DNA of 64,000 nucleotides from Nannocystis sp. RBIL2. GTDB taxonomy: Bacteria; Myxococcota_A; Polyangia; Nannocystales; Nannocystaceae. Below, one piece after another: positions 5,684-63,340 of this stretch; the first letter of the stretch is position 1, and each line of letters opens with the position of its first letter. The notes under the pieces were generated by a model. The model did no database searches. It saw nothing but the letters and a program-made list of their open reading frames with translations, and was not told the DNA's origin. The stretch lies in assembly GCF_026626745.1 (NCBI RefSeq), contig NZ_JAPNJW010000001.1:844311-908310 (forward strand), written 5' to 3'. Made by a program: the position numbers and the translations under genes.

Positions 5684-5760
5684 GACATGTCCGTTTGGCC
5701 AGGCGCCGGCGCGGCCCGCCGTCGCGGGCGCACAAAAACGGCCATGTCCTCATGGACATG
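5684..5760. repeat. GRCATGYC palindromic units (CATG at 5686, 5743, 5757) flanking a long imperfect hairpin (GGACATGTCCGTTT ... AAACGGCCATGTCC), between the end of the vWA gene and the 45-bp repeat tract.
   Basis: Read directly in the sequence. The 14-bp stem has one mismatch and a GC-rich loop of about 36 nt. The 5743/5757 pair is 14 bp apart. Confidence 0.6.
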
Positions 5761-5810
5761 GCCGTGTGAGCAGGTTCGGCGTGCGCCTCGAAAGCCGCGC
5801 CTGCTCGACC

Positions 5811-6308
5811 TCATTGCGGGCGCGGCGGGACCGTGCCGGCCCACGTGATCGCCGGCCGCTTGCCGGCGGGCTTGCTCGGCTGCTTCGCCCGCTTCGGCGG
5901 CACCTTCCCGGCCCACGTGATCGCCGGCTGCTTCGCCTTCTTCGGCACCTCGCCCGCCCACGTGATCGCCGGCTGCTTCGCCTTCTTCGGCACCTCGCCC
6001 GCCCACGTGATCGCCGGCTTCTTCGCCTTCTGCGGCACCTCGCCCGCCCACGTGATCGCCGGCTGCTTCGCCTTCTGCGGCACTGCGCCGGCCGGCTTCG
6101 TCGCGGGGCGCTCGCTGGCGTCGACACGACGGGCCGGCTTGCCGCGGCCGTGCAGGCCCGGGTCGCCCGCGGAGCCCCAGCCGTAACCGCGGCTGGCCAT
6201 CCGCGGCGCGGGGCCGTCCGACCCCCAACCGCCGTGCGACGAGAGCGTGAGGCTGCAACCGGTCACGCTGAAGAGGAGCGCCAACAGGGTCAGGATGATC
6301 TTGTGCAT
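5811..6308 (-). CDS. Small lipoprotein of uncertain validity, with five tandem PAITWAGEVPKKAKQ repeats. The far end of the ORF is open in all three minus frames and may not be coding.
   Basis: The N-terminus MHKIILTLLALLFSVTGCS is a classical signal peptide with lipobox VTGC. The rest of the product is the repeat block. The ORFs that overlap it in other frames are Arg-rich repeat artifacts. Confidence 0.6.
   Translation of the reverse strand: MHKIILTLLALLFSVTGCSLTLSSHGGWGSDGPAPRMASRGYGWGSAGDPGLHGRGKPARRVDASERPATKPAGAVPQKAKQPAITWAGEVPQKAKKPAITWAGEVPKKAKQPAITWAGEVPKKAKQPAITWAGKVPPKRAKQPSKPAGKRPAITWAGTVPPRPQ
5826..6105. repeat. Five tandem 45-bp direct repeats (unit cacgtgatcgccggctgcttcgccttcttcggcacctcgcccgcc) lying within the far end of the 5811..6308 ORF, where reading is open in all three minus frames.
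   Basis: The units are visible at about 5836, 5897, 5950, 6002 and 6047. In the 5811..6308 frame they would encode the PAITWAG repeats, but which frame, if any, is translated there is unresolved. Confidence 0.8.
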
Positions 6309-6575
6309 TTTTTAAAAACCTCGGTGCTCACGGACGCGCGTTGGATCCGCCTATTCAGACTGTCGACATTCACTGCAGATCGGCCTCTGCTCACGGCGGG
6401 GCGGCCGCCGGCGCGGGAGGCGGCGAATCGATGGCAATGTCATGACATGGCCCAAAGGACATTTTCGTTCCGGCAGTCGCGGCGAGAGCTCTTCGCGGGC
6501 GCGGGCGTCCTGCGGCTCCCGCTCGCGCCACGAGGGGGCTGGACCTGGCGAGCTCGACGGGGCAAGCTCGCGGCC

Positions 6576-6899
6576 ATGGGCTCGATTCGTTGCGAGAGGC
6601 ACGGCCAATGCGGGACGCTCGGCGCCTGCGCTCACGTCTTCGCCGCGCGCGAGGAGGACCGCCCGATCGACCTGATCGAGGCGGAGTTGCTCTTCCGGGT
6701 GTGGATCTGCCGCGAGTGCGAGGCCCTGTTCGAGCGGGCGCTGGCGACCGGCGCGCGCGACGAGACCGTGATGCGGCGGCACCACGAGCTCGACCGCCTG
6801 GGGTGCTGGCGGTGCATGCAAGAGTGGCGGGAACGCCATGCCCTCTCGGCACGACGCTCGGACGTGGACCTGGACCGTCTGGACCGCGATCGATCGTAG
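6576..6899 (+). CDS. Small Cys-rich protein (107 aa), possibly a zinc-ribbon protein.
   Basis: ATG at 6576. Eight Cys arranged in pairs (CERHGQC, CAHVF, CRECEA, CWRC). The composition is not Arg/Pro-rich noise. The upstream part of the track ORF 5766..6899 is repeat artifact. Confidence 0.3.
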   Translation: MGSIRCERHGQCGTLGACAHVFAAREEDRPIDLIEAELLFRVWICRECEALFERALATGARDETVMRRHHELDRLGCWRCMQEWRERHALSARRSDVDLDRLDRDRS

Positions 6900-7059
6900 C
6901 AGGCCGGGCGGTGCTCCAATGCTCCCCTCGTCGTCAGGCTGCGGCCTCGTGAGCGGCGAAGCATGGTTCTACGGCGCCGTCGACCTGGTGGTCCGCGGCC
7001 GGCCTCGACGCCTCCGCTTCGTGGAGAACTTCGCGCCACACTGATATCCTCCCCGCTCC

Positions 7060-8172
7060 GTGCCCCGCGCCCTGCTCCTCTGCGCGCTCCTGCTCGCCTG
7101 CGCGCGTCAGACGGCGCCGGACAAGGCGCCGCCGGCCCCGCCGCCGGCTGTGGTCGAGGTCGATCCGTGCGCCCCGGCGCCTGTCCCCGGGGACAGCTCC
7201 CGCGCGCTGACCCGGGCCGACGTGCTGCTCCGCTGCGGCGACGACGCGGGCGCGCTGGCGATCCGGTTCGCCCTGCTGCGCCGCGATCCGGGCTCGACCG
7301 CGCGGGCCTACGCGCTGGCGGTGCTGGCCCACGAGTCGGGGCGGGTCGCCGACATCGACGCGGCCGTGGGCGAGCTGCCGCTGACGGCCGGCGCGCGCGC
7401 CGTCTACCGCCTGACCCGCGACGTCTCGGCGTACCTCGACTTCAGGGCGCGAAGGCCCGAGGACCTCGGCAAGCGCGACGGGCCGCTCGACGCGGCCGCG
7501 CTGGCGCGCGACGTCGCGGCCGCGCTGGCCGTCACCGCCGACGACCCCTACGCGCTGAGCCTGGCGCTGCGCTTCACCGCGCTGCACGACGCCGACCCGC
7601 GCGAACGGGCCGCGCCGATCTGCCGCGACCGCGCCGACCCGCTGCTCGCCCGCCTGCGCGACCGCGAGGGCGCGGCGGTGCTGGCGGCCGCGTGCGGGCG
7701 GATCGCCTTTCGCTCGGCCGATCCGGTGGACGGTCGGCGCCGCTTCGCCCGCGCGCTCGAGCTGGCGCCCGACGACCACGCCGCGGCGCTCGCCTGGGCC
7801 GCCGCCGAGCTCGCGGCCGGCAACCTCGACGAGGCGGTGCGGCTGTACCAGCAGGCCTCCGCCGCGCCCTCGCCGCGACTGCGCTACGCGGCGTTCCTCG
7901 GCCTCGGGGTGAGCCACGCCCGCCGCCGCGAGCGCGAGCCGGCCGAGGCCGCCTACCGCAGCGCGCTCGGCGAGCTCGGGCTCGACACCACGACGCCCGC
8001 CAAGCTGCCGCCGGAGCTGACCTTCAACCTGGGCATCCTGCTGGCCGACGCCGCCGACCCGGCCGCCCGCGCCGAGGCCCGCGCGCTCCTGCGGGCCTAC
8101 GTCGACAACCTCGGCGCCGACGAGCGCCGCCGCCTGCGCGCGCGGATCTTGCTGCGCGAGCTCGGCGATTGA
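7060..8172 (+). CDS. Lipoprotein with TPR-like helical repeats.
   Basis: The N-terminus MPRALLLCALLLACARQ has lipobox LLAC. The rest is Ala/Leu-rich alpha-helical repeat sequence. Confidence 0.65.
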   Translation: MPRALLLCALLLACARQTAPDKAPPAPPPAVVEVDPCAPAPVPGDSSRALTRADVLLRCGDDAGALAIRFALLRRDPGSTARAYALAVLAHESGRVADIDAAVGELPLTAGARAVYRLTRDVSAYLDFRARRPEDLGKRDGPLDAAALARDVAAALAVTADDPYALSLALRFTALHDADPRERAAPICRDRADPLLARLRDREGAAVLAAACGRIAFRSADPVDGRRRFARALELAPDDHAAALAWAAAELAAGNLDEAVRLYQQASAAPSPRLRYAAFLGLGVSHARRREREPAEAAYRSALGELGLDTTTPAKLPPELTFNLGILLADAADPAARAEARALLRAYVDNLGADERRRLRARILLRELGD

Positions 8173-8184
8173 GACTGTCTTCTC

Positions 8185-8268
8185 GGCCATGTCCCGATGG
8201 ACATGTCTTGATCGTCATGCTCGATGCGACATGCCCGATTCGACATGGTCTTTCAGGCATGTCTCGTC
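8185..8268. repeat. Six tandem 14-bp units with a GRCATGYC dyad core.
   Basis: CATG at 8188, 8202, 8216, 8230, 8244 and 8258, exactly 14 bp apart. The units are ggccatgtcccgat, ggacatgtcttgat, cgtcatgctcgatg, cgacatgcccgatt, cgacatggtctttc and aggcatgtctcgtc. They lie between the convergent genes 7060..8172(+) and 8423..10792(-). Confidence 0.85.
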
Positions 8269-8422
8269 GACCTGGGCGAGCCCGTCGCCATGGCCCCCCT
8301 CGCCTCACCGCGAGCTCGCAACCTTGTCCGCGCGCCGGCGGAGACCGCCCGCCTTCTTTAAAAACTCGGTCCCCGCGCTTCACTGCAGCGAGCCCGCGCC
8401 CGCCCTTCGGAGGCTCCCCGCC

Positions 8423-10778
8423 TCATCGCGGTGGGCCCGACGCTCTCGCAGCCGCGCCGACGATCACCCGTCCGTCGTGGTCGGGCGCGTACTCCAGCGG
8501 CTCCTCGTAGCGACCGACCAGGCGGCCGAGGCCTGCACGGCACAGGGCGCTCTGGCCTCCGGCGTCGTGGCCCCACGCGGCCACGTGGTCGAGGCAGCGG
8601 GCGTAGGCCGTGAACACCGCCTCGCGGCGCTGGGCTGCCAGCTCGCGCATCTGCTGGGCCAGGCCGGCGTCGCCGGCGGCCTCGACGGCGGCGGCCACCT
8701 CGTCGAGCAGCGCCAGGTCGGACTCGTACACCTGCGCCTTGCGGGTCTCGACCAGCGCCGCCGACTGATCGCGGCCGCCGGCCCCGCCCGCGATCGCGGT
8801 CTCGTAGACCGCGCTCATGCGCTCGACCTCGGCCTTGCGGACCTCGAGCCACGCGCGCGAGCGGGCCGGGTCGAGGCTCTTCGGCGGCTGGCTGGTGAGC
8901 GCCGACTCGGCGTCGAGGTCGCCCTGCAGCAGCGCGACCTGGCGGCTGGCGGTCCGCGCCTCCTCGGCGTCGACGGCGATCGGCGCCTCGAGCTTGTCGA
9001 CCTCGCCGCCGCTGACCTCGGGCAACAGCTTCTGCGCGCGGTCGAGGTGCTCGCGGCCCTTGGCGTGCGGCTTGGGCAGGCGGGCGATCACCCGCGCCGG
9101 CGTGCGGTCGCGGCCGAATTCGACGCACAGGCCCTCGGCCCCGGGGACCGGGCAGGACGCCCGCAGCCACGCCTCGGCCGCGCGCGCGTGGGCGATCGCC
9201 AGCCGCCGCGGCCCGCCCTCCTTGCCGAACCGCTCGATGTACTTCTCGGCCGCCTCGGGCGTGACGCCGGGGCGGAACACCGCGCGGAACTGGATCGCCG
9301 CCGCCAGCGTGCGCTCCTCCGGGCGGCCGCGGATCAGCGCGTCGAGCTGTCCTTCGGGCAATGTCCCGGCGCGCAGGCTCAGGATCAGCGAGCGGCGGCG
9401 AGCGGTCGCTGCGGCGCGGTGCCGCGGGGCGCGGGCCACCAGATCGAGGTAGCGATCGCGGGCCTGCTCGTCGTTCAAGATCCGCTCGTGCAAGCGGGCC
9501 AGCCGCAGCACCGCGTCGGGGGCCCGCGGGTCCTCGCGGTGGACGTCGGCCATGCGCTCGAGCCAGTCGATCGCCTTCTGCGTCAGGCCGGCGCGCTCGT
9601 AGCAGCGACCGGCGCCGTCGGCCGCCTCGGCAGCCGCGTGGATGTCGGCGCCGAGGTCGGCGTAGAGCCCCTCGAAGGCCGCGCCGCAGCGGGCGTCGTC
9701 ACCGACCGCCTCCGACTCCTCGGCCTGGGCCCACAGCGCCGCGCGCCGCAGCGCCGCCACCTGGGCCACCTGCGGCCCGCCGGCGGCCTCGACCTCGACG
9801 GCCACGGTGACCAGGGCGACGCGGGCGGCCGAGCGCTCGCCGGCGCTGGCGGCCTCCATCCAGCGCGCCAGCAGCAGGCCGACCAGCAGCACCCGCGCCT
9901 GCTCGCGCGCCGGCCCGCTGACGGCGCTCAGGCTGGTCTCGGCCTCGTCCCAGCGGCGGTATCGCATCAGCAGCTCGGCCCGCTCGACCGCGACCTGCCC
10001 GGCCTCGGGCGTGCCCTGCAGCCCGGGCTCGGCGAGGAAGGCGTCGTAGGCGGCCAGCCACTCGCGGTCGCCGGCCGTCATCTCGCCGGGGGCGACGCGC
10101 GGGACGGGGTCGGTGCAGCGGCCCCGCGGATCCGGCAAACATGTCTGTTCAGACATGACCCATGGAGCAGGCTCCCCCTCGCGCACGCGCCGGACCGCGT
10201 CGAGCTGGGCGCGGGCCGAGCGGGCGGCCTGCTCGGTCGGCAGGCCGCCGGCCAGGGCGGCGCGGTGGTGGGCGTGGGCCTCGCGCAGCGCCTCGTCGGT
10301 CAAGGTGCGCTCGCCGATCTCGAGCGTCAGCCGCTCGGCGCGGGCCCACTCGAGCTTGCCCATCGCGTGGTGCAGCAGCGGCGCCTCGGCCTCGGCGGGG
10401 AAGTGCTTGCGCAGCGCCGCGTAGGCCTGGCGGGCCAGCGCGTGGCTCTGCGACCCGCCCGACTCGGCCCCCTGCTCGGCCCAGCGCAGCGTCACGGTCG
10501 TCAGCGCTGCGCGGGTCGCCTCGGCGCAGCGGGTCGCGTCGGGCCGGCCGCGGGTCGCCGCGTGGGCCTGGACCAGCAGCTCGATCTCTTCCCAGAGGTA
10601 GCGATCGGCGAGGCGCACCAGCCCGTCCTGGACCGCGCTCGCCTGCTTGTCGCAGGCCGCCACCGCCGCCGCACCGGATGTCTCCAAGGACATGTCCTTG
10701 GGGGCACCTGGCTCCGCGGTCGTCGGCCCGCGCGGGGCGCAGGCGAGCGTCAGCAGCAGCGCCAGCGCGGCCCGGCGC

Positions 10779-10792: not shown

Positions 10793-12662
<1,870 letters not shown>

Positions 12663-12754: not shown

Positions 12755-13198
12755 ATGCACTTTCGCCCGGCCACCAGCTCCGATGTCCCCGCGATCCTCG
12801 ACATGATGGAGGACTTCAACCGCCTGGAGCACATCCCGTGGCGCCGCGGACCCGGCGAGGCGCCGCTGCGGACCCTGATCGGCTCGCCCGGTCTCGGCAC
12901 CGTGGTCCTCGGCCTCGACGGCGACGCGCCGCTCGGCTACTTCGTGCTCACCTGGGGCTTCGACCTCGAGTGGGGCGGTCGCGACGCTTTCCTCACCGAG
13001 CTGTATCTGCGGGCCGAGGTCCGCGGCGCCGGTCGCGGCCGCCTGTTCCTCGACGCCGCCCTCGCCTCGGCCCGCGCCCACGGGGCCCGCGCGGTCCACC
13101 TGATGGTCCGCACCGACAACACGCCCGCCATCGAGCTCTACCGCCGCTCCGGCTTCACCGCCCCGCCGCGGGTGCTCATGACGCGGCCGCTCGACTGA
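12755..13198 (+). CDS. GNAT family N-acetyltransferase.
   Basis: 147 aa. The product has an acetyl-CoA binding-like region ([29 protein letters not shown]). A TATAGT -10-like box sits upstream. Confidence 0.8.
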
Positions 13199-13210
13199 GT
13201 TCTGTCCTTC

Positions 13211-13266
13211 AGGGCATGTTCACCTCGACATGTCCTCTCGGACATTCTTCCGAGGACATGTCCTCG
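13211..13266. repeat. Four tandem 14-bp GRCATGYC-core units.
   Basis: CATG at 13215, 13229, (CATT 13243) and 13257, exactly 14 bp apart. They lie between the convergent genes 12755..13198(+) and 13270..14550(-). Confidence 0.8.
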
Positions 13267-15920: not shown

Positions 15921-18377
<2,457 letters not shown>

Positions 18378-19526: not shown

Positions 19527-19542
19527 AAGGTGACCTTTTGGA

Positions 19543-19700
19543 CATGCCCCATCGGGCATGACTGAAAGAGCAGCAGGCTCACCGTGACGACGGTGTGCGA
19601 CGCTGCGAGACATGGCCATTCCGGAATGTCCCGAAGGTCATCCGGACATTCCGACAAGGGCGACATTGTGATGACATGCCCTGAAGGACATATCATCACA
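19543..19700. repeat. Longest GRCATGYC array: about nine units, partly degenerate, with 12-16 bp spacing.
   Basis: CATG or CATN cores at 19543, 19557, 19611, 19625, 19639, 19647, 19663, 19675 and 19688. They lie between the convergent genes MOSC(+) and the S1/P1 nuclease(-). Confidence 0.75.
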
Positions 19701-19718
19701 ATCGCCCAACGCCACGCG

Positions 19719-22128: not shown

Positions 22129-23397
22129 TCACGCCGGCGGATTCACCCCGGCCTGCTTGGCGAACGCGGCCTGGACGATGGCGGCGACGCGATCTGCCTG
22201 CGGATCGTTGGGGCCCTTGGGCGCGTCGACGACGACGTCGCCGACCTGGATCTGCCGCGTCGGGCGCTGCTGCAGCGCTGCCACGAAGTCGTTCGCCGAC
22301 GAGGAGCTCTGCGCCAGCGCCGCGAGCTCCGGCGACAGGATCACCGGCTCCGGCGGCGAAGCCGGCATCCAGTTCGGGTCGTAGCCGAACGGGGCGTAGT
22401 ACCCCTCGATGTGCTGGTATGCGCCCTGGGCCAGGAACTTCTGCAGCGAGTCGAGGGTCGAGCTCTTGTAAGCGTCCGTGGTGTACGAGCCGGTGACCGG
22501 CTTGAGGTTGGGCAGCGTCGTATAGCCGCCGCCCATGGCCAGCAGCCGGAACACCTCGACCAGCACCACGATCGCGGCGTAGGAGAGGTCGACCTTGGGC
22601 AGCACGGGCGGGGCGATGTTGGGCTCGTAGATCTTCCACATCTCGAACAGGGACGGCGTGCCGAACTCCGCCCACGCGTGCGGCACGAGGTCGAGGGTGT
22701 TGTAGGCAGGCTGCAGCAACGCGCCGAGCCTGGCGCCCGAGTAGAAGGCGAACTCGCCGTTGCCCGCGGTCGGGCCGGCGAACGACTGCGCGCCGATCGT
22801 CGCGTTCTTGCCCGGATCCCAGGGCAGCACCAGCCCCTGCGCAGTGTCGGCGAGCCACAGCGCGACGGTGGGCGCGAGGGCGCCGCCGAGGCTGTGACCG
22901 GCGACGGTGATGTGCACCTTGTTGCTCACGATGGTCCGGAGGAAGTCGACCAGAGTGGTGCCCTCGCCGGGGAGCCGGGGGGCGGGCCTCAAGTTCTGGA
23001 GATTGAGCAGACCGATCGCGGTGCCGAGCGCGATCTTGGCTCCGATCGCGCCGATGTTGAACAGCCAGGGCACCTGCTTGTAGACGTGGAGGTCCTCGAT
23101 GAGCGTGTCGATCGGGGAGTTGAAGTTGGTGCCGCCGATGGAGATCACGTACTGCGAGGGATCGGCGACGCTCTGCGACACGTACATGGTGTTGACGCTG
23201 TAGCCGTCCTTCCCCACCAGCACGCCGGGGCCCCAGACGAGCTGCCACTGGCCGATGGTGGAGGCGGCGTTTTCGAGGGCCTGGCTGATCTGCTTGGACG
23301 CCCGCAGGGCGAGGTCCTGGCCGGTCACGTTCTGGACGGCGTTGGTGAACATCGACAGCGCGAAGGTCTGGACTTGAGTCGGAGGATTGGTGGACAT
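22129..23397 (-). CDS. Class 3 (fungal-type) lipase family protein.
   Basis: VAGHSLGGALA is the GHSLG nucleophile elbow. Start at ATG 23397 (MSTNPPTQ). Upstream track ORF sequence is antisense noise. Confidence 0.75.
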   Translation of the reverse strand: MSTNPPTQVQTFALSMFTNAVQNVTGQDLALRASKQISQALENAASTIGQWQLVWGPGVLVGKDGYSVNTMYVSQSVADPSQYVISIGGTNFNSPIDTLIEDLHVYKQVPWLFNIGAIGAKIALGTAIGLLNLQNLRPAPRLPGEGTTLVDFLRTIVSNKVHITVAGHSLGGALAPTVALWLADTAQGLVLPWDPGKNATIGAQSFAGPTAGNGEFAFYSGARLGALLQPAYNTLDLVPHAWAEFGTPSLFEMWKIYEPNIAPPVLPKVDLSYAAIVVLVEVFRLLAMGGGYTTLPNLKPVTGSYTTDAYKSSTLDSLQKFLAQGAYQHIEGYYAPFGYDPNWMPASPPEPVILSPELAALAQSSSSANDFVAALQQRPTRQIQVGDVVVDAPKGPNDPQADRVAAIVQAAFAKQAGVNPPA

Positions 23398-40466: not shown

Positions 40467-40820
40467 ATGGCGCTGCGCTCGCAGGAACACTCCACGCCCA
40501 TGCTCGGCGTGATGCTCGCCAGCTCGCTGCTGGTGATGCTCGTGCTCGGCGGATTGGCAGCCGCGGAGCGAAATTGGGTGTTCGGGACTCTCGCGGCCGT
40601 CGCGGCGATCGGCGCGGCCTCTCTGGCGAGGCTCAGGCTGCGACTCGCAGCGCGACGAACACGGGAGCCGCTCGAGTCGAGCGCCGGCACGGCCGCGCCC
40701 GCGAGCGCGCCGCGGGCCTTCGTGACCGAGGCCAGCCAATCGATCGGCGCGCGCGCCCGCGACGGAATCGTCGTCACGAGGTGCCGCCGGGCTGTGACCG
40801 ACATGTCACCGCATTCATGA
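40467..40820 (+). CDS. Possible small two-TM membrane protein.
   Basis: Hydrophobic helices MLGVMLASSLLVMLVLGGLAAA and VFGTLAAVAAIGAASLA. It lies in a 640-bp divergent intergenic region. Weak call. Confidence 0.2.
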   Translation: MALRSQEHSTPMLGVMLASSLLVMLVLGGLAAAERNWVFGTLAAVAAIGAASLARLRLRLAARRTREPLESSAGTAAPASAPRAFVTEASQSIGARARDGIVVTRCRRAVTDMSPHS

Positions 40821-40878
40821 TCGAGAATACCTAGGATGCCCGGCGCGGGCCTGTCCGGCCCGATGGTCGCGTCATCCC

Positions 40879-55997: not shown

Positions 55998-56006
55998 ACT
56001 GCGGCC

Positions 56007-56956: not shown

Positions 56957-57022
56957 GCGCGCCGACGGCCCGGGGCGACGCGGGCCGTGTCCGCCATCCC
57001 CGGCCGATGTCAGGCGACGCGA

Positions 57023-58291
57023 TCAGGCGAGGTGGGACTTGCCTGCATTGAAGTCGTTCTGCAGCGCCGACGCGATCGCGCTCTGGAGGGTCCCCTTGGT
57101 GATGATGCTGCCCAGGTCGAGCCCGAGACCGACGAGCGTCTGCGCCAGGGACGGCCGGATTCCGGTCAGGATCGTCTTCGCACCGAGCAGCTGCAGCCCC
57201 TTGGCCGTGTCGAGCAGCGCGCGCGCGACGCGGGTGTCGAGGTCGCGCAGCCCCGTCACATCGAGGATGACCACCTGCACGTGGGTCGACTGGACGCCTT
57301 CGAGCGCGACAGTCATCACCTGATGGATCCGGTCCGTGTCCATCTGGCCCACGAGCGGCATGACCACGATCCGCTCGGTGATCGGGATGAACGGCGTCGA
57401 CATCGCCTCCATCGTGTCGCGCAGCCGCTCGAGCGTCCGCTCGTACTCGCCGAGCAGATCCTTGTATGGCGTGACGTCATGGGCCGTGCCGTACACGAGC
57501 CGGGTCGACTCGTCCTCGTTCGGGTCCATGTACGCGGTCCAGGCGAGCCACTTGTAGGTGCCGTCCTTGCACTGATAGCGGTTGTCGAAGCGGATGGTCA
57601 TCTTGCCTTCGAACAGGGCCGCGGCCTCGGCGGTCGTCGCCGCTCGGTCGTCGGGGTGGACGAACTCGATGAACGGCCTCGCCGTCATCTCCTCGGGGCT
57701 CCAGCCGAGGAGATGCCGCCACGCCGGGTTGGCGTGGCGGAAGTAGCCGTTCGAGTCCAGGGTGACGAGGAGGCCCACCGAGACCCGGAACAACTTCTCG
57801 TAGACCTTGGCGTCCTGCAGCGTGGGCTCGAGCTGCGACTGCCGCTCCCGGTCGCCCGTCACGTCGATTCCCGTCGCATAGATGAGCTGCTCCGACGGCT
57901 CGTCCCCTGCGTCCACCCGCGCGGCCCAGCCGAGCCACTTGTACGAGCCGTCTTTACACAGATAGCGGTTGTCGAACCGGTCGACGGTGTTGCCCTGGAG
58001 AAGGCCGGCCACCTCGGCGAGCGTCACCTCGCGGTCGCTCGGATGGACGAACTCGATGAACGGCTTGCTCCTCAGCTCGTCGAGGGACCAGCCGAGGATC
58101 CGCTCCCATGTCGGATTGAGGGCGCGGAAGTGGCCGTTCGCGTCCACAGTGGCCAGAAGCCCTGCATAGGCCTGGAACATCTTCTCGTAACTCAGCACCG
58201 AATCCTCCCTTGCGCGGCCGTGACTGCGAGCGCTCGCTGCGGGGCCGCCCGTCGACGAATCCCCGTACGCATATGCGGAAGAGCCTCCCAC
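57023..58291 (-). CDS. Tandem-PAS / STAS-domain sensor (RsbR-like).
   Basis: Two PAS repeats (each ...FIEFVHP.DR...RFDNRY.CKDG.YKWL.W.A...). The C-terminal STAS is FIPITERIVVMPLVGQMDTDRIHQVMTVALEGVQSTHVQVVILDVTG. Confidence 0.7.
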   Translation of the reverse strand: MGGSSAYAYGDSSTGGPAASARSHGRAREDSVLSYEKMFQAYAGLLATVDANGHFRALNPTWERILGWSLDELRSKPFIEFVHPSDREVTLAEVAGLLQGNTVDRFDNRYLCKDGSYKWLGWAARVDAGDEPSEQLIYATGIDVTGDRERQSQLEPTLQDAKVYEKLFRVSVGLLVTLDSNGYFRHANPAWRHLLGWSPEEMTARPFIEFVHPDDRAATTAEAAALFEGKMTIRFDNRYQCKDGTYKWLAWTAYMDPNEDESTRLVYGTAHDVTPYKDLLGEYERTLERLRDTMEAMSTPFIPITERIVVMPLVGQMDTDRIHQVMTVALEGVQSTHVQVVILDVTGLRDLDTRVARALLDTAKGLQLLGAKTILTGIRPSLAQTLVGLGLDLGSIITKGTLQSAIASALQNDFNAGKSHLA

Positions 58292-59045
58292 GCCAATGAC
58301 GCAGGAGCGAACAGCGCCCGCCTCATAGCAAGCTCGGCCCTCCGATCATCGCAGACACTTGTCCACGAGACGCGGCTATATGTCAAGAGCACCGGACGGC
58401 GGCGGCGGCGCCGCCGCCGTGCGGTGTACGTGTTCGCCGCCGATCGGAACCACCGCCCTCCCACTGTTGCCAACGGCGATAACGCGAGCACGTTCGCGCC
58501 CGAGCGCGGACGGCGATAGGGTCTGCGATTGTTCACTGGGCGCAAAACCGGGCCCTCGTCGCCGATCCACGAGTGACGACTGGCACGATTTCTACGGACC
58601 ATCCTAGTGAATCGAAAGGGTCGGTCCGACGCCAGGGCGAATCGTGATTCGAGCTTCAGGTCGCCGATTCGCCGTGGACGAACCGCCGCCGCAGCACGGC
58701 GGCCATCTCTCGCGAGCGACGATCACTGCGGCGCCGTCGGAGCGCAGGTGGAAACACAGGCGCCGACGATGCTGATCGACGCATCGGCGACGACGATTTG
58801 ATATCCTGCTGGCCGTTCCCGTCGCTGTCGTCGTATCTGGGGGGTCGAGCCCGGCCACGCGGAGGTTGCATGACGAAGCTCACTGTCCGCCCGCCGTCCG
58901 CGCGCGACTCGGCAGACTCGCGGCGCCACGGCGTCCCGTCCCCGATCAGCCGCGAGGCCCGCCCCTGCGCAAGTGCATGGCATGCGATGCTACCCTGAAG
59001 CGGCGCGACCAGATTCTCGCCAAGGGTCGATGTCGAGGAGTGACG

Positions 59046-59462
59046 ATGAGCCAGGCATTGAACGAGTTCCTGATCAGGCTCTACGGCTTCGCCGACAAGC
59101 GAGACAAGACGGTCCAGTTCGACCGCGCGATCGCCCTCGATTGCCTCCGGAGCGACTTCGACGCGTCGATCCATTGCAGCTTCTTCGTGAACGTATTCGA
59201 TGAGAACATGCTCGTGCTGTCCTACGCGGGCAATCATCCGCGGAACGCCAGGGTGGATAGCTTGGGGGCGCCCTTCCTGCAGCGGTTTCGCCTCGCCAGA
59301 GAAACGCCAAACGCATTGCGGGAGCTGGCAGCGGCATACAAGCAGATTCGCCCTCCGGCGGGCGAGAAGAGCTGGCTCGTCTCGCGCAAGGAAGTGGCCG
59401 CACAGCTCGAGCAGCTGGCGCAGAGTCTCGAAGAGTTCCTGAGGTCCGGACCTGTGAATTGA
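59046..59462 (+). CDS. Hypothetical protein (138 aa).
   Basis: ATG at 59046 (MSQALNEFLIRLYGFADKRDK...). Protein-like composition. The upstream part of the track ORF is noise. Confidence 0.35.
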   Translation: MSQALNEFLIRLYGFADKRDKTVQFDRAIALDCLRSDFDASIHCSFFVNVFDENMLVLSYAGNHPRNARVDSLGAPFLQRFRLARETPNALRELAAAYKQIRPPAGEKSWLVSRKEVAAQLEQLAQSLEEFLRSGPVN

Positions 59463-59681
59463 GCGCGCGAGCAGCCCGACACCGAACGTCGCCGCGGTGC
59501 TGTTCTCGCCGAAGTCCTCGCGGCCGGCGGCGTGGTCATCGTCTCGAACGAGTGGAGCTGCTACGCGGAGCGCGAGAACCTCCAGCGCGGCGCTCACCGG
59601 CCTCGACAGCGAGCTGTCGTGCATGGACGCCCTCGCCGCCGACGCCCCAGGTCTCGTACCCTCGCGGCCTCACCGGGTCTT

Positions 59682-59730
59682 CGTGGTATATCCCGGCAAT
59701 GACGACCCCATCCGATTCGGCCGGCGCGTC
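59682..59730 (+). promoter_or_regulatory. Conserved 5' element, copy B: GGTCTTCGTGGTATATCCCGGCAATGACGACCCCATCCGATTCGG. Its ATG at 59707 opens a 21-codon leader (MTTPSDSAGASRRTCSAREFP) whose TGA overlaps the yceI-like ATG as ATGA.
   Basis: Aligns with copy A (39192..39250, minus strand) at about 45/50 identity. A single-base difference after TCGG shifts the frame relative to copy A. Confidence 0.5.
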
Positions 59731-59760
59731 GCGACGAACTTGCTCCGCGAGGGAATTCCC

Positions 59761-60315
59761 ATGAACACGCAGGACAAAGGCACGATCCACGTCTTCACGT
59801 TCAAGGACGGCCTGCTCGCGCGGCTCGCCCACGATCTCCGGCTGTCGCTGGGACGCTTCGAGATCCGCCGCGAAGGCACCGCGCTCAGCGGCCGCTTCTG
59901 GCCGGCCACGCTGAAGGTCGACGGCGTCGTCGGCAAGGACGGGCGCGTCGACGTCGATGGCCTCGGCGCCGGCGACAAGGCCAAGATCCAGCGCAACATC
60001 ACCGACGAGATCCTGCTGACCGCGCAGCACCCGGAGGTCAGCTTCACCGGCGCGCTCACCCCCGGCGGGGTCCTGGATGGCCGATTGGTCATGCTCGGAA
60101 GGACAGCCCCGGTGCGCGCCCCGGTCCGCGTCGAGGGCGACCGCCTGCGCGCCGAATTCACGCTCGTGCCCTCCCAGTGGGGCATCGCCCCGTACAAGGC
60201 GCTGGCCGGGGCGATCAAGCTGCAGGACCGCATCGTCGTCTCCCTCGACCTGCCCGCCGATCCCGACGCCGGCGGCGAGGCCACGCCCGACCCCTGCACC
60301 TGGGCAGCCCCCTGA
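59761..60315 (+). CDS. YceI-family protein.
   Basis: MNTQDKGTIHVFTFKDGLLARLAHDLRLS ... FWPATLKVDG ... LTAQHPEVSFTG is the YceI-like fold signature. Confidence 0.8.
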   Translation: MNTQDKGTIHVFTFKDGLLARLAHDLRLSLGRFEIRREGTALSGRFWPATLKVDGVVGKDGRVDVDGLGAGDKAKIQRNITDEILLTAQHPEVSFTGALTPGGVLDGRLVMLGRTAPVRAPVRVEGDRLRAEFTLVPSQWGIAPYKALAGAIKLQDRIVVSLDLPADPDAGGEATPDPCTWAAP

Positions 60316-60384
60316 CCGCGCACCCGCCGTAGCTCGCCGGCCGCACGGCCGCGGGCGCGCCTGGCCTGCGGGTGGCTGTCTTTA

Positions 60385-60454
60385 TGGGCATGCCCGAAAG
60401 GCCATGCTCCTCGGACCATGAAAAAGGGGACATGCTCGGACGAGCATGTCCCCC
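60385..60454. repeat. Five tandem 14-bp GRCATGYC-core units.
   Basis: CATG at 60389, 60403, 60417, 60431 and 60445, exactly 14 bp apart. They lie between the convergent genes yceI-like(+) and the BlaR1-like gene(-). Confidence 0.85.
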
Positions 60455-60477
60455 CGGACTCCTGCGAAGCTACAGTC

Positions 60478-62679
60478 TCACTTCACGCGGACCTGGCGGG
60501 CCGCCTCGCTGATCTTGCGCTGCTCCTCGGCGTCGATCACCCCGTCGCGCAGCGCCTCGTCGACCGCGCTGCGGACGGCGGCCGCGGCCCGCGAGGCCTC
60601 GGCCTTGTTGCGGCCCTTCTCGGCCTGCCGCGAGGCCCGCTCGCGCGCCCGCTCGGCCCGCTCGCGCGCCCGGTCGCCCTGTTCGCGCGCCCGGTCGCCC
60701 CGCTCGCGCGCCCGGTCCGCCCGCTCGCGCGCCCTCTCGGCGTCCTCCCGGGCCCGGTCGGCCTGCTCGCGCGCCCTCTCGACGCCGCGGAGCGACGCCT
60801 TGACCCCGCGCTGCACGTCGGCGGCGATCTTGTCGAAGTCGATGCCCTCCAGCTCGCGCTCGATCTGCTCGTCGAGGCCCTCGAGCTGGGCTTCGACCTG
60901 GGCCGCGATCGCCTCGGCCTGGGCCGCGATCGCCTCCTCGTCGATGTCCGGCACGTAGAACACGGGCGGGGGGACGGCCACGTGCGGCACGGCGATCGGC
61001 CGGACCATCACGTCGTGATCGTCGTCGTCGCAGTCGTCGTGGTCGTGCGCGACCACGACCTTGAAGCTGGGCGGCGTCGGCGGAGTCGGCGGCGTCGGCG
61101 GTGTGGGCGGCGTCGGCGGCGTCACGTGCGACACCGGCACGTACACCGCGTGCGTCGCCGGCACCGCGTACAGCCCGCTCTTGGCGCGCAGCTTGGCCGC
61201 CTTGCGGGCGTGCCGCTCGGCGCGGCGCAGCAGTCGCTTCTGCTTGCGGGTCAGCTCCTGCGCATGCTCGACGACGATGATCTCGTGCCCGTGGACCGCG
61301 TGGTCGTGCGGCGTCCGCACGGCCACGATCGGCGTCTCGGGCACGTGGACGAACGACAGCGTCGGCTGCGGCGCCGGCCCGTTGTCGGGCGCCGTCGGCC
61401 ACTCCTCCGGGGCACCTTGCGCCTCGGCCGCGATCGACAGCCCGGGCGCGCCGAACGTCACCATCGCCAGCAGCGCCGCGCCGAGGGCCACCCGCCAGCG
61501 CCGGGCCCACAGGCCGCGGTCGCGCAGGTGCACGTCGAGCAGGCGCTGCACCCGGCGCACCAGCTGCGAGGCGTGCCCCGCCATCGGGCTGGCGAACGCC
61601 GACATGTCCCGATGACCAGGCCACGCCGCGACCTCGGTCAGGCAGCGCGCCAGGTGCACCTCCGAACCGGTGTGGCGGACCGCCCAGTCGTCGCACAGCT
61701 CCTCCGCCGCCTCCTGCATGCCGCGGCGGGCCACTCGATTGAGCGGCTGGAAGAACAGCAGCGACTCGACGAACCCCGCCAGCACCTGCCACGCCGGATC
61801 GCGGCGCAGCACGTGGGCCAGCTCGTGGGCCAGCATCGCCTCCTGCTGCCGCGGCGCCAGCTCGCGCACCTGCTCCGGCACCACGATCTCGCGGCCGGTG
61901 AGGGCGATCGGCGAGCTGATGTCCGCGGACTCGCTCAGCGTGACGCTGTGGCCGGGCAGCCGCGCGTGGGCCAGCAGCCGCGTCAGGCGCTCGCGCAGCG
62001 AGCCCGAGCCGAGCAGGCGACGACCGCGGAGCCCGCGGCGCATACGGGAGAACGTCATCCCGAGCCGGCCGAGCGAGGCCGCGGCGCCGAACACGAACAG
62101 CCCCGCGAACGCCCACACCGCCGCGCTCACGCCCCCCATCGGGCCCGCAGTCGCTATCTGCATCGGCGCGGCCGCCAGCGGCGGTGCGGTCGTCGGCGCG
62201 GGCAACGGCGTCGGCGCGACCGCCCAGCCCGGCGCGTCCACGAACAGCGGCGGCGAGGCGAACACCGCCGTGATGTCGTCGTCGCTGACGACCACCAGGT
62301 GCGACTCGCAGCCGACGCACGCGCGGGTGAACGGCACCAGCAGCGTCGCCGGCTCCTCCTCGATCACCGGCGGCGGCGGGGCTGCCGTCGTCGGCGCGGT
62401 CACGGCCGGGCTGCTCGCCGCCACGGTGACGCGGCCGAACATCGGCTCGACCCCGAGCCCCGTCTGCAGCGTCGCCGTGAACAGCCCGCCGACCAGCGAT
62501 GTCTTCCACAGCAAGCTGCGGGTCAGCGCGTCGAGCGGCAGGAAGCGGCTGAACATCCACACGCCGCCGATGAGCACCGTCGAGTGGACGAAGTAGGTGC
62601 CGAGCCAGCTCACCGTCGTGTGAGCGGCCGGCGCCGCGAGACCGGCGAGGCCGGCAGGATCGATCGCAAGATCAAACAT
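60478..62679 (-). CDS. BlaR1/MecR1-family M56 peptidase-type signal transducer. The C-terminal region is TPP repeats plus an RARE-repeat coiled coil, with no penicillin-binding sensor domain.
   Basis: Four N-terminal TM helices. MLAHELAHVLRRD is the HEXXH zinc site. TPPTPPTPPTPPTPP and RAREQADRAREDAERARERADRARERGDRAREQGDRARERAERARERA are encoded by 9- and 36-bp tandem repeats. Confidence 0.8.
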   Translation of the reverse strand: MFDLAIDPAGLAGLAAPAAHTTVSWLGTYFVHSTVLIGGVWMFSRFLPLDALTRSLLWKTSLVGGLFTATLQTGLGVEPMFGRVTVAASSPAVTAPTTAAPPPPVIEEEPATLLVPFTRACVGCESHLVVVSDDDITAVFASPPLFVDAPGWAVAPTPLPAPTTAPPLAAAPMQIATAGPMGGVSAAVWAFAGLFVFGAAASLGRLGMTFSRMRRGLRGRRLLGSGSLRERLTRLLAHARLPGHSVTLSESADISSPIALTGREIVVPEQVRELAPRQQEAMLAHELAHVLRRDPAWQVLAGFVESLLFFQPLNRVARRGMQEAAEELCDDWAVRHTGSEVHLARCLTEVAAWPGHRDMSAFASPMAGHASQLVRRVQRLLDVHLRDRGLWARRWRVALGAALLAMVTFGAPGLSIAAEAQGAPEEWPTAPDNGPAPQPTLSFVHVPETPIVAVRTPHDHAVHGHEIIVVEHAQELTRKQKRLLRRAERHARKAAKLRAKSGLYAVPATHAVYVPVSHVTPPTPPTPPTPPTPPTPPSFKVVVAHDHDDCDDDDHDVMVRPIAVPHVAVPPPVFYVPDIDEEAIAAQAEAIAAQVEAQLEGLDEQIERELEGIDFDKIAADVQRGVKASLRGVERAREQADRAREDAERARERADRARERGDRAREQGDRARERAERARERASRQAEKGRNKAEASRAAAAVRSAVDEALRDGVIDAEEQRKISEAARQVRVK

Positions 62680-63082
62680 CGTCGTGTTCCTCAGCTCCGC
62701 CGGATCGTTCGGCCAATAGTCGTTGCAGGCGCGCGACGTCGTCCGGTTCGACGCTGCGGCCTTCGACGAGGTGGCTGACCAGCGCCGCCACGTCCCCGCC
62801 GAAGAAGTAATCGGTGAGCCTGCCCAGCATCGAGCGCCTCACGTCCACCTCGCACACGAGCGCCCGGTAGATGAACTGCCGGCCCTCCGTGCGGTGCGCG
62901 ATGGTCCCCTTCTTCTCCAGCCGCGACAGCATCGTCGACACCGTCGTCGGCGCGAGCCCCCGATCTTGCTCGACCAGAGCCGCATGCACCTCGAGCGCCG
63001 TCGCCTCCCCGCGGTCCCACAAGATCCGCAGCAGGCCGAGCTGCAGATCGCTGAGCTGGAGTACCTCACCCATGAACGACAA
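62672..63082 (-). CDS. BlaI/MecI/CopY-family transcriptional repressor.
   Basis: LSDLQLGLLRILWDRGEATALEVHAALVEQ ... TVSTMLSRLEKKGTI is the winged-helix penicillinase-repressor fold. It overlaps the BlaR1-like start by 8 nt. Confidence 0.85.
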   Translation of the reverse strand: MSFMGEVLQLSDLQLGLLRILWDRGEATALEVHAALVEQDRGLAPTTVSTMLSRLEKKGTIAHRTEGRQFIYRALVCEVDVRRSMLGRLTDYFFGGDVAALVSHLVEGRSVEPDDVARLQRLLAERSGGAEEHDDV

Positions 63083-63270
63083 GCGTAGTACTACAGGTGT
63101 AGTAAGCCGTCAAGCGAGATTTTTCAGCCCCTGGCGGCCTTCCAGAGCGAGTGCGCGAAAACGCTCCGACCTGCACTTTCGTACATGTCAACCGTCCGAC
63201 GCGCAGTCAGCGCAGGCCATTGTTCGCGCTCCTTTAATGGGCTCGACCGTGGCCGACGTGCTCCATTCGA

Positions 63271-63340
63271 CATGTGCACATAGACATGTCTAATAGGACA
63301 CTAATATTAAAACATTACCTGAAGAACATGTCCATTCGTG
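63271..63340. repeat. AT-rich variant of the 14-bp array (5 units) in the blaI-like upstream / divergent region. It includes the perfect palindromes ATGTGCACAT and TAGACATGTCTA.
   Basis: CATG or CAYT cores at 63271, 63285, 63299, 63313 and 63327, exactly 14 bp apart. At about 45% GC, this is the most AT-rich 70 bp in the window. Confidence 0.75.

Follow-up and report, generated by a model that had tools for sequence, protein, structure and literature searches.

The locus raises the question of what short runs of a palindromic core, centred on CATG and repeated every 14 bp, are doing between the genes of Nannocystis sp. RBIL2. The original prediction had recognized them in a stretch of 64,000 nucleotides (the window, to which all positions refer) and had offered a REP/BIME-like family, a cooperative array for a dimeric DNA-binding protein or a boundary element as possible roles, with no choice among them. 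Counting confirmed that the 14-bp-phased arrays are a real feature, far above chance. Among the 213 CATG sites of the window, 15 pairs were spaced at 14 bp, 8 at 28, 7 at 42 and 4 at 56, versus 0–3 pairs (about 0.7 on average) at any other distance between 4 and 70 bp. The corresponding numbers in 288 kb of Nannocystis DNA were 189, 124, 82 and 43, with only two off-phase pairs at 13 bp and four at 15 bp. The exact core GACATGTC, for which about one copy (0.98) was expected, occurred eight times, a count reached in none of 100 shuffles, and GRCATGYC was found 16 times versus 5.9 expected. The phased CATG units alone number 25, and the predicted total of more than 30 holds once about eight degenerate in-phase units are included. 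We also agree that the arrays are not CRISPRs and that their palindromic units create spurious open reading frames.

The elementary unit is a 14-bp dyad, TGYCC-N4-GGRCA. At the array ends the inward half-site was kept in 19 of 76 flanking units and the outward half in two (p = 4e-7); since only the inward half-site is retained, the working unit is this dyad, abutted head to tail, and the abutment generates GGRCA/TGYCC cores and hence a CATG every 14 bp. Units of one array have the core in common but not the spacers. The spacers are saturated with substitutions, yet the 14-bp register is held exactly, 13- and 15-bp spacings being essentially absent. The spacers are AT-rich, and tracts of at least four A or T are most frequent in arrays (5.0 per kb), less so in the remaining intergenic DNA (1.6) and rare in coding DNA (0.25). 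Neighboring GCATGT and ACATGC units tend to alternate in orientation (24 pairs versus 14 in the same orientation).

The arrays of the window were read in a 14-nt register from their CATG positions. At 5682–5709, a full unit, AGGACATGTCCG, is followed by an in-phase inward half-unit GGCCA (position-weight-matrix score 16.8), 62 nt past the stop of a plus-strand gene ending at 5620. The next element, at 5738–5765 on the minus strand (CATG 5743/5757), is a two-unit hairpin, ACGGCCATGTCC-ATGA-GGACATGGCCGT, with a 12-pair stem and then TTTTT on the minus strand; as 5765–5738(−) it is a predicted canonical intrinsic terminator, 45 nt past the stop codon of a lipoprotein gene (5811–6308) on that strand. 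The 45-bp repeat tract, earlier described as of unresolved coding status, is coding and encodes this lipoprotein, which has 15-aa repeats. A second predicted canonical terminator is the blaR1 hairpin at 60453–60426(−), which belongs to an array at 60370–60453 composed of an inward half-unit GCTGTCT and five CATG units (60389–60445), located where a YceI-like gene (+) converges on a BlaR1-like gene (−); units 4 and 5, read on the minus strand, form a perfect 12-bp hairpin with UUUUU after it.

Further arrays were localized to gene ends. The array at 8169–8266, an inward half-unit ACTGTCT plus six units (CATG 8188–8258; fold z-scores −2.8 and −4.4), lies between convergent genes and starts 10 nt past the stop of a TPR gene (7060–8172, +). 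At 10673–10712 (score 18.2), downstream of a kinase gene stop (10779, minus strand), degenerate units flank the perfect palindrome CCAAGGACATGTCCTTGG in a three-unit element. At 13196–13265, an inward half-unit TCTGTCC, three CATG units (13215/13229/13257) and a CATT unit at 13243 occupy the entire 71-bp gap between convergent GNAT (+) and DUF3089 (−) genes (fold z −5.7 and −4.7), and an orthologous array is present in N. punicea. The two-unit hairpin GGACATGCCC-CATC-GGGCATGAC at 19538–19565 (CATG 19543/19557), 11 nt past a MOSC gene stop, is retained in a relative at 94% identity, in which the changes compensate one another. It is followed at 19600–19705 by the degenerate units GACATGG, GAATGTCC, GGACATTC, GACATGCC and GGACATAT, which form two long hairpins (fold z −7.8) directly downstream of an S1/P1 nuclease stop (19719, minus strand). 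Fold z-scores across the tested arrays thus ranged from −2.8 to −7.8.

The remaining elements are weaker or lie elsewhere. An intergenic degenerate pair at 6437–6470, ATGTCATGACATGGCCC AAAGGACATTTTCG, is a weak member. The phased units AAACATGTCT and AGACATGACC at 10135–10162 (CATG 10140/10154) fall within the coding TPR gene 8423–10663 (−), where the surrounding GC3 is 0.91–0.97; this is an atypical site, away from any protein-gene 3′ end, and the pair could have arisen by chance. A two-unit match in a divergent promoter region at 40797–40824 (CATG 40802/40816), CGACATGTCAC and ATTCATGATCG, is weak, with matrix scores of 9.5 for the first unit and below 6 for the second (ATTCATGATC); it is a doubtful member that may be a chance match. 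The five AT-rich units at 63266–63335, three with CATG (63271/63285/63327) plus a CACT and a CATT unit, have an atypical context, the 660 bp of non-coding DNA that separate the divergent blaI (−) and lipoprotein (+) genes. This array is distinct from BlaI's own operator, a separate palindrome, TACTACAGGTGTAGTA, at 63089–63104. In the original prediction, the pairs placed at 10130/10144 and 40793/40807 are displaced by about 10 nt from the positions given here, and the members at 5682–5709, 6437–6470 and 10673–10712 had been missed.

Gene 3′ ends, chiefly convergent junctions, proved to be the typical location. Forty-two arrays of at least three units could be classified: 27 were convergent, 12 co-directional and directly past the stop of the upstream gene, two in coding DNA and only one divergent, so that promoters are avoided. 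The junction baseline comprises 120 co-directional junctions and 46 each of the convergent and divergent kinds; against it, the convergent enrichment is significant (binomial p = 4e-9), and most arrays begin 0–40 nt past a stop codon. Within the window, five of the 13 convergent junctions bear arrays, all five in gaps of 71 bp or more, a size that six junctions reach; the arrays beginning at 5738, 8183, 13210, 19538 and 60384 all lie between convergent genes, which bears out the predicted location.

Isolated two-unit copies covary compensatorily as hairpins. In 26 such copies, pairing was 77.9% versus 70.4 ± 1.5 in shuffles, double-sided changes numbered 36 versus 20 ± 3.9, and the covariation score was 0.263 versus 0.146; none of 500 shuffles reached any of these values. 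In long arrays, the best adjacent pair was more complementary than chance (4.58 versus 4.17, p = 0.001), most adjacent units were no more so than their common consensus predicts (mean 2.07 versus null 1.96), and half-sites varied independently (+1/−1 position pairs: T-A 37, T-G 35, C-A 25, C-G 23). Apart from the two canonical hairpins with T-tracts, most array hairpins are without a U-tract, and structure upstream of T-runs was weakly more stable than downstream (p = 0.086). On the sense strand of co-directional contexts, G·U mismatches (18) were not in excess over C·A (15), and no RNA-specific signature was therefore seen there.

At a probability of roughly one half, we favor the explanation that the arrays are Nannocystis extragenic palindromes, REP/TRIT-like bidirectional terminator hairpin modules that would punctuate gene 3′ ends under an additional sequence constraint. 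Whichever strand is transcribed, the left half of a core would pair with the right half of the core before it, giving a CAUGYCC/GGRCAUG stem of 7–12 bp with a 4-nt loop; by this pairing a two-unit copy would be one hairpin, and an array of four to six units would make several alternative hairpins available to both converging transcripts. Such modules would serve as bidirectional transcription terminators and as 3′-end-protecting hairpins that insulate convergent and neighboring genes, a job for which enterobacteria use REP/BIME elements and mycobacteria the TRIT motif. The arrays look like lineage-specific, sequence-coded two-way transcription stop signals, and we infer a function in termination or insulation. 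Of the three roles first proposed, a transcription boundary has the best support, which comes from the position past stop codons, the enrichment at convergent junctions, the hairpins and the canonical terminators present in a subset. Generic termination leaves the invariant CATG unexplained, as it does the strict 4-nt spacer and the inward half-sites that end the arrays. Plain terminators can do without a fixed sequence, and the conservation of the core, the fixed spacer and the lack of indels therefore imply a further sequence-specific reader, which we infer to exist and which might be a stem- or duplex-binding protein or a copying enzyme. Counting against the 3′-end terminator reading are the largely consensus-level complementarity in long arrays, the lack of a U-tract in most hairpins and the missing RNA-specific signature, together with the array at 63266–63335 and the pair at 10135–10162, which lie away from protein-gene 3′ ends.

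A scan of 185,579 species was used to evaluate the taxonomic range. Of the 110 stretches among the matches listed, 28 came from five Nannocystis species, and the degenerate-spacer family was restricted to those 28 (which include L075, itself a near-perfect tandem repeat), the other 82 being near-identical tandem repeats. The array-rich group comprises exedens, pusilla, punicea, bainbridge and radixulma, and SCPEA4 has few arrays. No 14-bp CATG pairs were present in 20 kb of a relative whose S1/P1 nuclease is 80% identical, or in 55 kb of relatives at 59–62% identity; the convergent gaps seen in these array-free relatives are mostly very short, some 0–5 bp. The comparison of orthologous junctions that had been proposed showed that most CATG cores stay in register, and where both species have the core, spacers are 35% and core flanks 51% identical. 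Cores held in phase while adjacent neutral DNA is unalignable point to purifying selection in place. No description of the phased Nannocystis arrays was found in the literature searched.

An alternative reading, possible although rather unlikely, places the function in duplex DNA. A dimeric protein, possibly of the PadR-type winged-helix kind, would bind each TGYCC-N4-GGRCA dyad (equivalent to ATGY-N8-RCAT) and tile cooperatively every 14 bp, with four helical turns accommodating three dimers. At gene ends, the nucleoprotein block so formed would be a roadblock to transcription, an insulator or, by analogy with the gyrase binding reported for BIMEs, a topology- or nucleoid-managing site. The exact phase despite saturated spacers, the inward half-sites at array ends, the independent half-site variation in long arrays and the AT-rich spacers all fit the dimer-binding array of the original prediction, and ATGT-N8-ACAT, contained in the dyad TGTCC-N4-GGACA, fits the PadR box of ATGT and ACAT 8–10 nt apart (PMC3506622). 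Tiling at 14 bp does occur at a PadR-family promoter, as metagenome contig L247 carries five phased GACATGTC units in a divergent promoter directly upstream of such a gene (PF03551 + PF10400). However, PadR boxes occupy promoters of padR and target genes, usually in one or two copies, whereas the Nannocystis arrays avoid promoters (1/42) and follow stop codons; about one third to two fifths of their core-flanking positions read C or G (ATGC/GCAT) and not the T/A of the PadR box. Moreover, the covariation of two-unit copies and of the best pair per array is unpredicted by independent half-site recognition, and no PadR-family gene lies within the 64-kb window.

It is less likely still that the arrays are in essence REP/REPIN- or MITE-type repeats, selfish or neutral and devoid of host function, which would have been spread or amplified by a lineage-specific enzyme (e.g., a RAYT-type HUH transposase) or by local slippage and would survive at gene 3′ ends only because insertions are harmless there. 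The patchy distribution within one lineage is consistent with this, as is the local tandem amplification of 14-bp units and 50–76-bp modules at L075, L064, L011, L040 and L111. The very short convergent gaps of array-free relatives suggest that arrays were added, and 3′-end location and hairpin doublets are typical of REPINs (PMC3116915). On the other hand, no near-identical 16–21-nt master sequence was found in 288 kb, where the commonest CATG-containing 16-mers reach at most three copies and recurrence of 21-mers is confined to local tandem copies; the family is thus not a REPIN population. Dispersed arrays share at most about 20–35 nt, close to the consensus, and no GTAG-type or other conserved tetranucleotide was seen beside the units. 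The in-phase cores at orthologous junctions amid unalignable DNA, and the absence of any plasmid or phage match to the arrays, also argue against selfish spread. The predicted REP/BIME-like family therefore stands for behavior (extragenic, 3′ ends, hairpins, arrays, one lineage) and fails for membership. Ordinary slippage minisatellites or chance CATG clustering are highly improbable, for although L075 is a near-perfect 14-bp tandem repeat and CATG-containing 14-bp tandem repeats are common in many taxa, this reading is contradicted already by counts never reached in shuffles, by units agreeing in core and not in spacers, and by one core recurring at hundreds of unlinked junctions and conserved in phase between species.

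As putative bidirectional terminator modules, the arrays can be compared with TRIT, a genus-restricted, sequence-conserved palindromic terminator motif, mostly bidirectional and near gene termini, for which an extra factor binding the conserved stem was inferred (Gardner et al., 2011, RNIE paper, PMC3152330). Both have a high-GC host, conserved sequence besides structure, a mostly bidirectional palindrome tied to gene termini, and confinement to one genus, with about 10^2–10^3 TRIT copies and, extrapolated from local density, probably hundreds to thousands of Nannocystis arrays per genome. TRIT has its own consensus and forms one longer hairpin, centered around −8 relative to the stop codon, whereas in Nannocystis the module measures 14 nt, has a 10-bp core, occurs singly, as doublets or in phased arrays of up to six units, usually starts 0–40 nt past the stop, shares no sequence similarity with TRIT and belongs to a different phylum. 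An array of 11 units was seen in one metagenome contig.

The REP/BIME/REPIN-RAYT elements of enterobacteria and pseudomonads are likewise lineage-specific, hairpin-forming extragenic palindromes at 3′ ends and convergent junctions, in doublets and arrays of often alternating units inherited vertically at fixed positions. REPs are 20–40 nt long, near-identical genome-wide and marked by a conserved tetranucleotide recognized by RAYT; in Nannocystis only about 10 nt are constrained, and degenerately, and the 14-bp period is far shorter and stricter than BIME spacing. Intrinsic and bidirectional terminators resemble the arrays in the GC-rich hairpin past the stop codon, a T-tract in a subset and symmetry for both converging genes, but are defined by structure, with no common sequence, conserved core or fixed phase.

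Arrays of (T/A)GACATGTC(A/T) were also found in the roseobacter-type contigs L174, L252 and L162 and in genome CP121340.1, and no description of these was found in the literature searched. They share with the Nannocystis arrays the 14-bp phase, the core, a leading CTGTCT half-unit (L252), perfect two-unit hairpins and an intergenic location at 3′ ends and convergent junctions, and differ in having A/T in place of GG/CC flanks, a lower density (two arrays in 21 kb) and an alphaproteobacterial host.

In the window, which has a G+C content of 71%, exact GACATGTC was found eight times against 0.98 expected, a count that 0 of 100 shuffles reached, and the degenerate GRCATGYC occurred 16 times against 5.9 expected. 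The over-representation claimed in the original prediction was thereby borne out. However, the decisive statistic for the reality of the arrays was the spacing. Among the 213 CATG sites of the window, 15 pairs were separated by 14 bp, eight by 28 bp, seven by 42 bp and four by 56 bp, with 0–3 pairs at each of the other distances between 4 and 70 bp, so that the 14-bp phase also held. A 288-kb pool, consisting of 28 Nannocystis loci and the window, yielded 189, 124, 82 and 43 pairs at the same four distances, compared to two at 13 bp and four at 15 bp. The phased arrays are therefore real and far from chance. When read in the 14-nt register, the window contains a two-unit array at 5743/5757, a six-unit array at 8188–8258, a unit pair at 10140/10154, an array at 13215–13257, a unit pair at 19543/19557, a weak pair at 40802/40816, a five-unit array at 60389–60445 and an array at 63271–63327. 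Most of the coordinates predicted for these arrays were correct; two pairs had been placed about 10 nt off, the 40802 pair proved weak, and additional members at 5682–5709, 6437–6470 and 10673–10712 had been missed.

The consensus of the unit across the 288-kb pool is nnGGRCATGYCCnn, and the four spacer bases are almost uninformative apart from their A/T-richness. Examination of the array edges revealed that the inward half-site was kept in 19 of 76 flanking in-phase units and the outer half in two of 76 (background 1.4%; Wilcoxon p = 4e-7); within the window, leading half-units were observed at 8174 (ACTGTCT), 13201 (TCTGTCC) and 60375 (GCTGTCT). These inward half-sites demonstrate that the working unit is a spacer-centered dyad, TGYCC-N4-GGRCA, abutted head to tail, and that CATG is the joint (...ACA-TGT...) between abutted dyads. 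The arrays form A/T-rich islands, with an A+T content of 40% versus 28% elsewhere, and runs of at least four A or T number 5.0 per kb in arrays, compared to 1.6 in intergenic DNA elsewhere and 0.25 in genes. Local tandem amplification is one way in which arrays can grow, as evidenced by 14-bp units in the Nannocystis locus L075 and by modules of 50–76 bp in the loci L064, L011, L040 and L111. A hard limit of 5–6 units was considered and dropped, since array lengths fit a simple decay and one metagenome contig contains 11 units. A Rho-hexamer footprint (5–6 × 14 nt) was dropped together with this limit; moreover, YC-dimer binding would not explain the CATG core. Higher-order repeats were also noted, with modules of ~60–71 bp that each hold 2–3 phased units in L064 (7715–7968) and L011 (3780–4140), and with 42-bp modules, again of 2–3 phased units each, in the metagenome contig L169 (2780–2990).

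To describe the placement of the arrays, genes were called with a purpose-made GC3-based caller and checked against Pfam; the palindromic units themselves seed spurious ORFs in gene calls. Among arrays of at least three units, 27 were localized between convergent genes, 12 between co-directional genes, one in a divergent region and two in coding DNA, and nine were at locus edges. The junction baseline was 46 convergent, 120 co-directional and 46 divergent, which gives a binomial p = 4e-9 for the convergent excess. The 42 classified arrays hence agree with the intergenic, mostly convergent placement of the original prediction. All 12 co-directional arrays directly follow the upstream stop, the first unit is mostly 0–40 nt from the stop codon, and several arrays span the entire gap from stop to stop. 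In the window, arrays occupy five of the 13 convergent junctions, corresponding to five of the six gaps of at least 71 bp; the convergent gaps lacking arrays measure 3–66 bp, apart from one 108-bp gap with an unrelated hairpin.

Orthologous junctions, with flanking genes of ~80–91% DNA identity, were compared between N. radixulma and N. exedens, N. punicea and N. radixulma, and the window and N. punicea. The CATG cores of orthologous arrays were in the same register, and the intergenic DNA outside the arrays of these junctions was unalignable. Where a core was present in both species, spacer identity was 35% and identity over the three bases on each side was 51%, values that correspond to independent draws from the motif. 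Single units decayed in one lineage and persisted in the other, and the phase never slipped. That most cores were retained without indels indicates purifying selection on the core and its spacing.

Evidence for base pairing was clearest in the short members of the family. In 26 isolated two-unit copies from unlinked loci, 77.9% of positions were paired (70.4 ± 1.5 in shuffles), 36 double-sided changes were counted (20.0 ± 3.9 in shuffles) and the covariation score was 0.263 (0.146); these values were reached by 0 of 500 shuffles, and slid registers all scored far lower. At the MOSC/nuclease junction of the closest relative (94%), two hairpins were kept, with mismatches repaired in one part of the stem while another part decays. 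The fold z-scores of the arrays ranged from -2.8 to -7.8. Two textbook terminators are present on the minus strand of the window, ACGGCCATGTCC-ATGA-GGACATGGCCGT followed by TTTTT at 5765–5738 behind a lipoprotein gene, and GGGGACATGCTCG-UCC-GAGCAUGUCCCC followed by UUUUU at 60453–60426 behind blaR1. A hairpin with a U-tract was also seen in several other loci, but most hairpins are without one. In long arrays, the best adjacent pair of units was more complementary than chance (p = 0.001), whereas the complementarity of all adjacent pairs was barely above the shared-consensus expectation (p ~0.03–0.08); the +1/-1 pairs were T-A in 37 cases, T-G in 35, C-A in 25 and C-G in 23. The difference in stability between upstream and downstream sides according to T-tract orientation was a trend (p = 0.086), and sense-strand G·U showed no preference over C·A in co-directional contexts (18 versus 15).

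Our reading of these data is that pairing matters, at least once per array and throughout the doublets, and that a sequence-specific reader constrains every unit in addition. Termination by a hairpin requires neither the fixed CATG, nor the fixed 4-nt spacer, nor the half-sites at the edges, which argues for a sequence-specific partner. We consider it about an even bet (probability ~0.5) that the arrays are lineage-specific bidirectional terminators or 3'-end hairpin modules, similar to REP or TRIT elements, whose constraints imply such a specific partner. A boundary or terminator function was thus the best supported of the roles proposed in the original prediction; the likeness to REP/BIME elements stood with respect to behavior and failed with respect to sequence population, and the proposed protein-binding array fared less well, as follows.

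That the arrays act at the level of DNA, as binding sites for a protein, appears rather unlikely to us, although a duplex-DNA reader stays a candidate owing to one unrelated metagenome contig. In this contig (L247, 4185–4262), five units of the GACATGTC type in 14-bp phase occupy a divergent promoter shared by a DUF3159 membrane-protein gene and a PadR-family gene (PF03551 and PF10400), with the array directly upstream of the latter. Judged by sequence, these units look like tiled PadR boxes. The canonical PadR box consists of ATGT and ACAT separated by 8–10 nt (PMC3506622), and TGTCC-N4-GGACA corresponds to ATGT-N8-ACAT; however, the +1 position is C in 35% of the units and the -1 position is G in 39%. 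PadR operators are located in the promoters of padR or its targets, whereas only one of the 42 classified Nannocystis arrays is in a divergent region, the family as a whole being at the wrong gene end for a classical operator. No PadR gene was present among the genes scanned in the window, and inspection of the genes beside promoter-located arrays (L102 and L075) for a reader gave nothing informative. A broader proposal, which we regard as doubtful, is that of a genome-wide duplex-DNA code. Here a dimeric protein, either a PadR-like winged-helix or a lineage-specific one, would tile the DNA every 14 bp to form a plug at gene ends; as a roadblock, this plug would terminate or insulate converging transcription units in both directions, or else it would give topoisomerase or nucleoid proteins a docking site. 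GACATGTC arrays found in the roseobacter group would be its second instance.

It is improbable, in our estimation, that the family is largely a selfish repeat. It resembles REP/BIME elements in being extragenic, at gene 3' ends or in convergent gaps, and in forming a stem-loop palindrome with compensatory variation, a property of the two-unit copies that is weak in long arrays. Nevertheless, the high-copy, near-identical master sequence of 16–35 nt that characterizes REP/BIME elements is missing. The highest count of any CATG-containing 16-mer in 288 kb is three, 21-mers recur solely as local tandem copies, and dispersed arrays share at most 20–35 nt, with two consensus-like units at the most. 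A REPIN-type population was hence rejected, given the lack of recurrent 16–21-mers. A GTAG-type flanking tetranucleotide is also lacking, the information being confined to GGRCATGYCC with flanks and spacers near background, and the annotated genes of the window include no RAYT (IS200/IS605 Y1 transposase).

The nearest published analogue that we found is TRIT, a well-conserved palindromic motif with 147 copies, mostly bidirectional and tight to gene termini, which occurs in Mycobacterium only and whose describers suspected that its conserved stem is bound by some factor (PMC3152330). The Nannocystis motif is likewise sequence-conserved, palindromic, at gene termini and mostly bidirectional, but it differs in its GGRCATGYCC core, its 14-nt module and its genus; it is therefore an analogue of TRIT and not a member. 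No Rfam family reached its gathering score anywhere in the window, so that the element is not a known RNA family. Searches of the literature for palindromes in Nannocystis, convergent or intergenic repeats, TGACATGTCA, and RAYT or REPIN in Myxococc found no description of such repeats.

Other explanations were rejected. A CRISPR array, already discounted in the original prediction, was ruled out by the 14-bp unit, the 4-bp spacer, the degenerate core and the absence of cas domains in the genes scanned; MITE or IS ends by the fact that no two dispersed arrays are alike beyond ~2 units (no empty site was found at which target-site duplications would show); and a plasmid or phage origin by the lack of a sequence match. 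Genes show no avoidance of CATG (observed/expected 1.15 in coding DNA), which leaves a restriction-modification explanation without support. A minisatellite generated by slippage does not fit either, since Nannocystis units share the core only, L075 being the exception; most matches from the viral and metagenome scans were, in contrast, near-identical repeats with a unit identity of mostly 0.8–1.0.

We were able to delimit the family by scanning one genome per species, from 185,579 species, with a query of five CATG at 14-bp phase. At least 110 stretches matched, of which 28 came from N. bainbridge, N. radixulma, N. exedens, N. pusilla and N. punicea. Among the matches listed, a conserved core with unrelated spacers was seen only in these 28 stretches, excepting L075, which is a near-perfect tandem repeat; the other 82 matches listed were near-identical tandem repeats of 7 or 14 bp. 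The S1/P1 nuclease of the window is 94% identical to that of a Logan contig, 87% to that of N. punicea and 78% to that of Nannocystis sp. SCPEA4, which places the window in a species of Nannocystis. Synteny with the window was seen in N. punicea, whose arrays occupy the corresponding junctions, and SCPEA4 showed one clear array in 21 kb. No array was found in 20 kb of a relative with an 80%-identical nuclease (L160), nor in 55 kb of relatives with nucleases of 59–62% identity. Taken together, the scan and the array-free relatives show that the array family, among the matches listed, is confined to part of one genus, and the arrays provide a clean taxonomic marker.

In the metagenome scan, about a dozen high-GC arrays similar to those of Nannocystis were found directly behind stop codons (for example in L238, L266, L256, L200 and, with 11 units, L169). 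The scan also yielded contigs from alphaproteobacteria of the roseobacter group, in which enolase is 92–95% identical to that of Sulfitobacter, Ascidiaceihabitans and Roseobacter. These contigs, and likewise the sequence L281, contain (T/A)GACATGTC(A/T) units in 14-bp phase, as perfect two-unit hairpins and as arrays of 3–4 units in 3'-end or convergent intergenic regions (L174, 4186–4250; L252, 4772–4815 and 5040–5080; L162, 3540–3720; L281, 2452–2480 and 9680–9735), and one of the arrays begins with a Nannocystis-type CTGTCT half-unit. L281 belongs to a complete genome, CP121340.1, in which, within 21 kb, a four-unit array lies 68 nt past the stop of an EamA gene and a two-unit hairpin lies elsewhere. 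The roseobacter arrays suggest that the phenomenon may be wider than one genus.

The viral scan returned no Nannocystis-type array. Phage contigs of ~46% GC displayed degenerate 14-bp-phased arrays in non-coding DNA (L125, 6668–6751; also L154, L156, L145 and L123), with a consensus of ~nGATWCATGnnnnn and ending in the palindrome GAATACATGTATTC; the 458-aa ORF adjoining the array of L125 has no Pfam match. In the array-free relative L113, three copies of another repeat, ~GTGGCGTGGTTTCAGCGGCACGG, occupy a convergent gap (16440–16640); this repeat was not scored by Tandem Repeats Finder, and its presence suggests that related lineages carry intergenic repeat families of their own. The enlarged nuclease/MOSC gap of N. 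punicea (L111, ~11075–11300) contains 3–4 copies of a ~50-bp tandem repeat (...GGCCGCGAGCGGCTCTCCGCGCGGCCGATGCAGTCCGCCAGGCGATTCA...) that is absent from the window. A separate repeat, the 21-mer CCGGCGGCGAGCTCACGGGCG with its reverse complement, occurs five times in the 288-kb pool.

Canonical U-tract terminators are scarce in very GC-rich bacteria, and little is understood of how transcription is ended and converging polymerases are separated in these organisms. With its place in the gaps between many convergent genes, a genus-specific element offers a handle on both problems. At about one array per 4–8 kb in unselected stretches (the window and L111), extrapolation gives probably hundreds to thousands of copies per 11–13-Mb genome. 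The core, being fixed, and the register, being exactly 14 bp, point to a sequence-specific partner that should be discoverable, and the arrays could be of use as compact two-way terminators in the engineering of myxobacteria.

Several other features of the window were recorded. An unusually A/T-rich array (63266–63335) lies inside a 660-bp stretch without a coding-GC3 ORF (63083–63744), which may hold a small RNA missed by annotation or a promoter region of complex structure. Genes for a BlaR1-like M56 peptidase and a BlaI-type repressor are on the minus strand at 60478–63104, and TACTACAGGTGTAGTA at 63089–63104, just upstream of blaI, is likely the operator of the repressor itself; this candidate is separate from the 14-bp arrays. 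The 45-bp repeat tract (5877–6083), the coding status of which had been left unresolved, is coding and lies in a minus-strand ORF (5811–6308) with a lipoprotein signal, MHKIILTLLALLFSVTGC, followed by about five copies of a 15-aa unit, PAITWAGEVPQKAKQ. The 96-nt tRNA-Arg(ACG) reported by ARAGORN at 22322–22417 on the minus strand is within a lipase-family coding region (22129–23352) and is probably a false positive. A VgrG-type gene with Phage_GPD, Phage_base_V and gp5 C-terminal domains (1305–3434, minus strand) suggests that the left end of the window carries a type VI secretion or contractile-injection locus.
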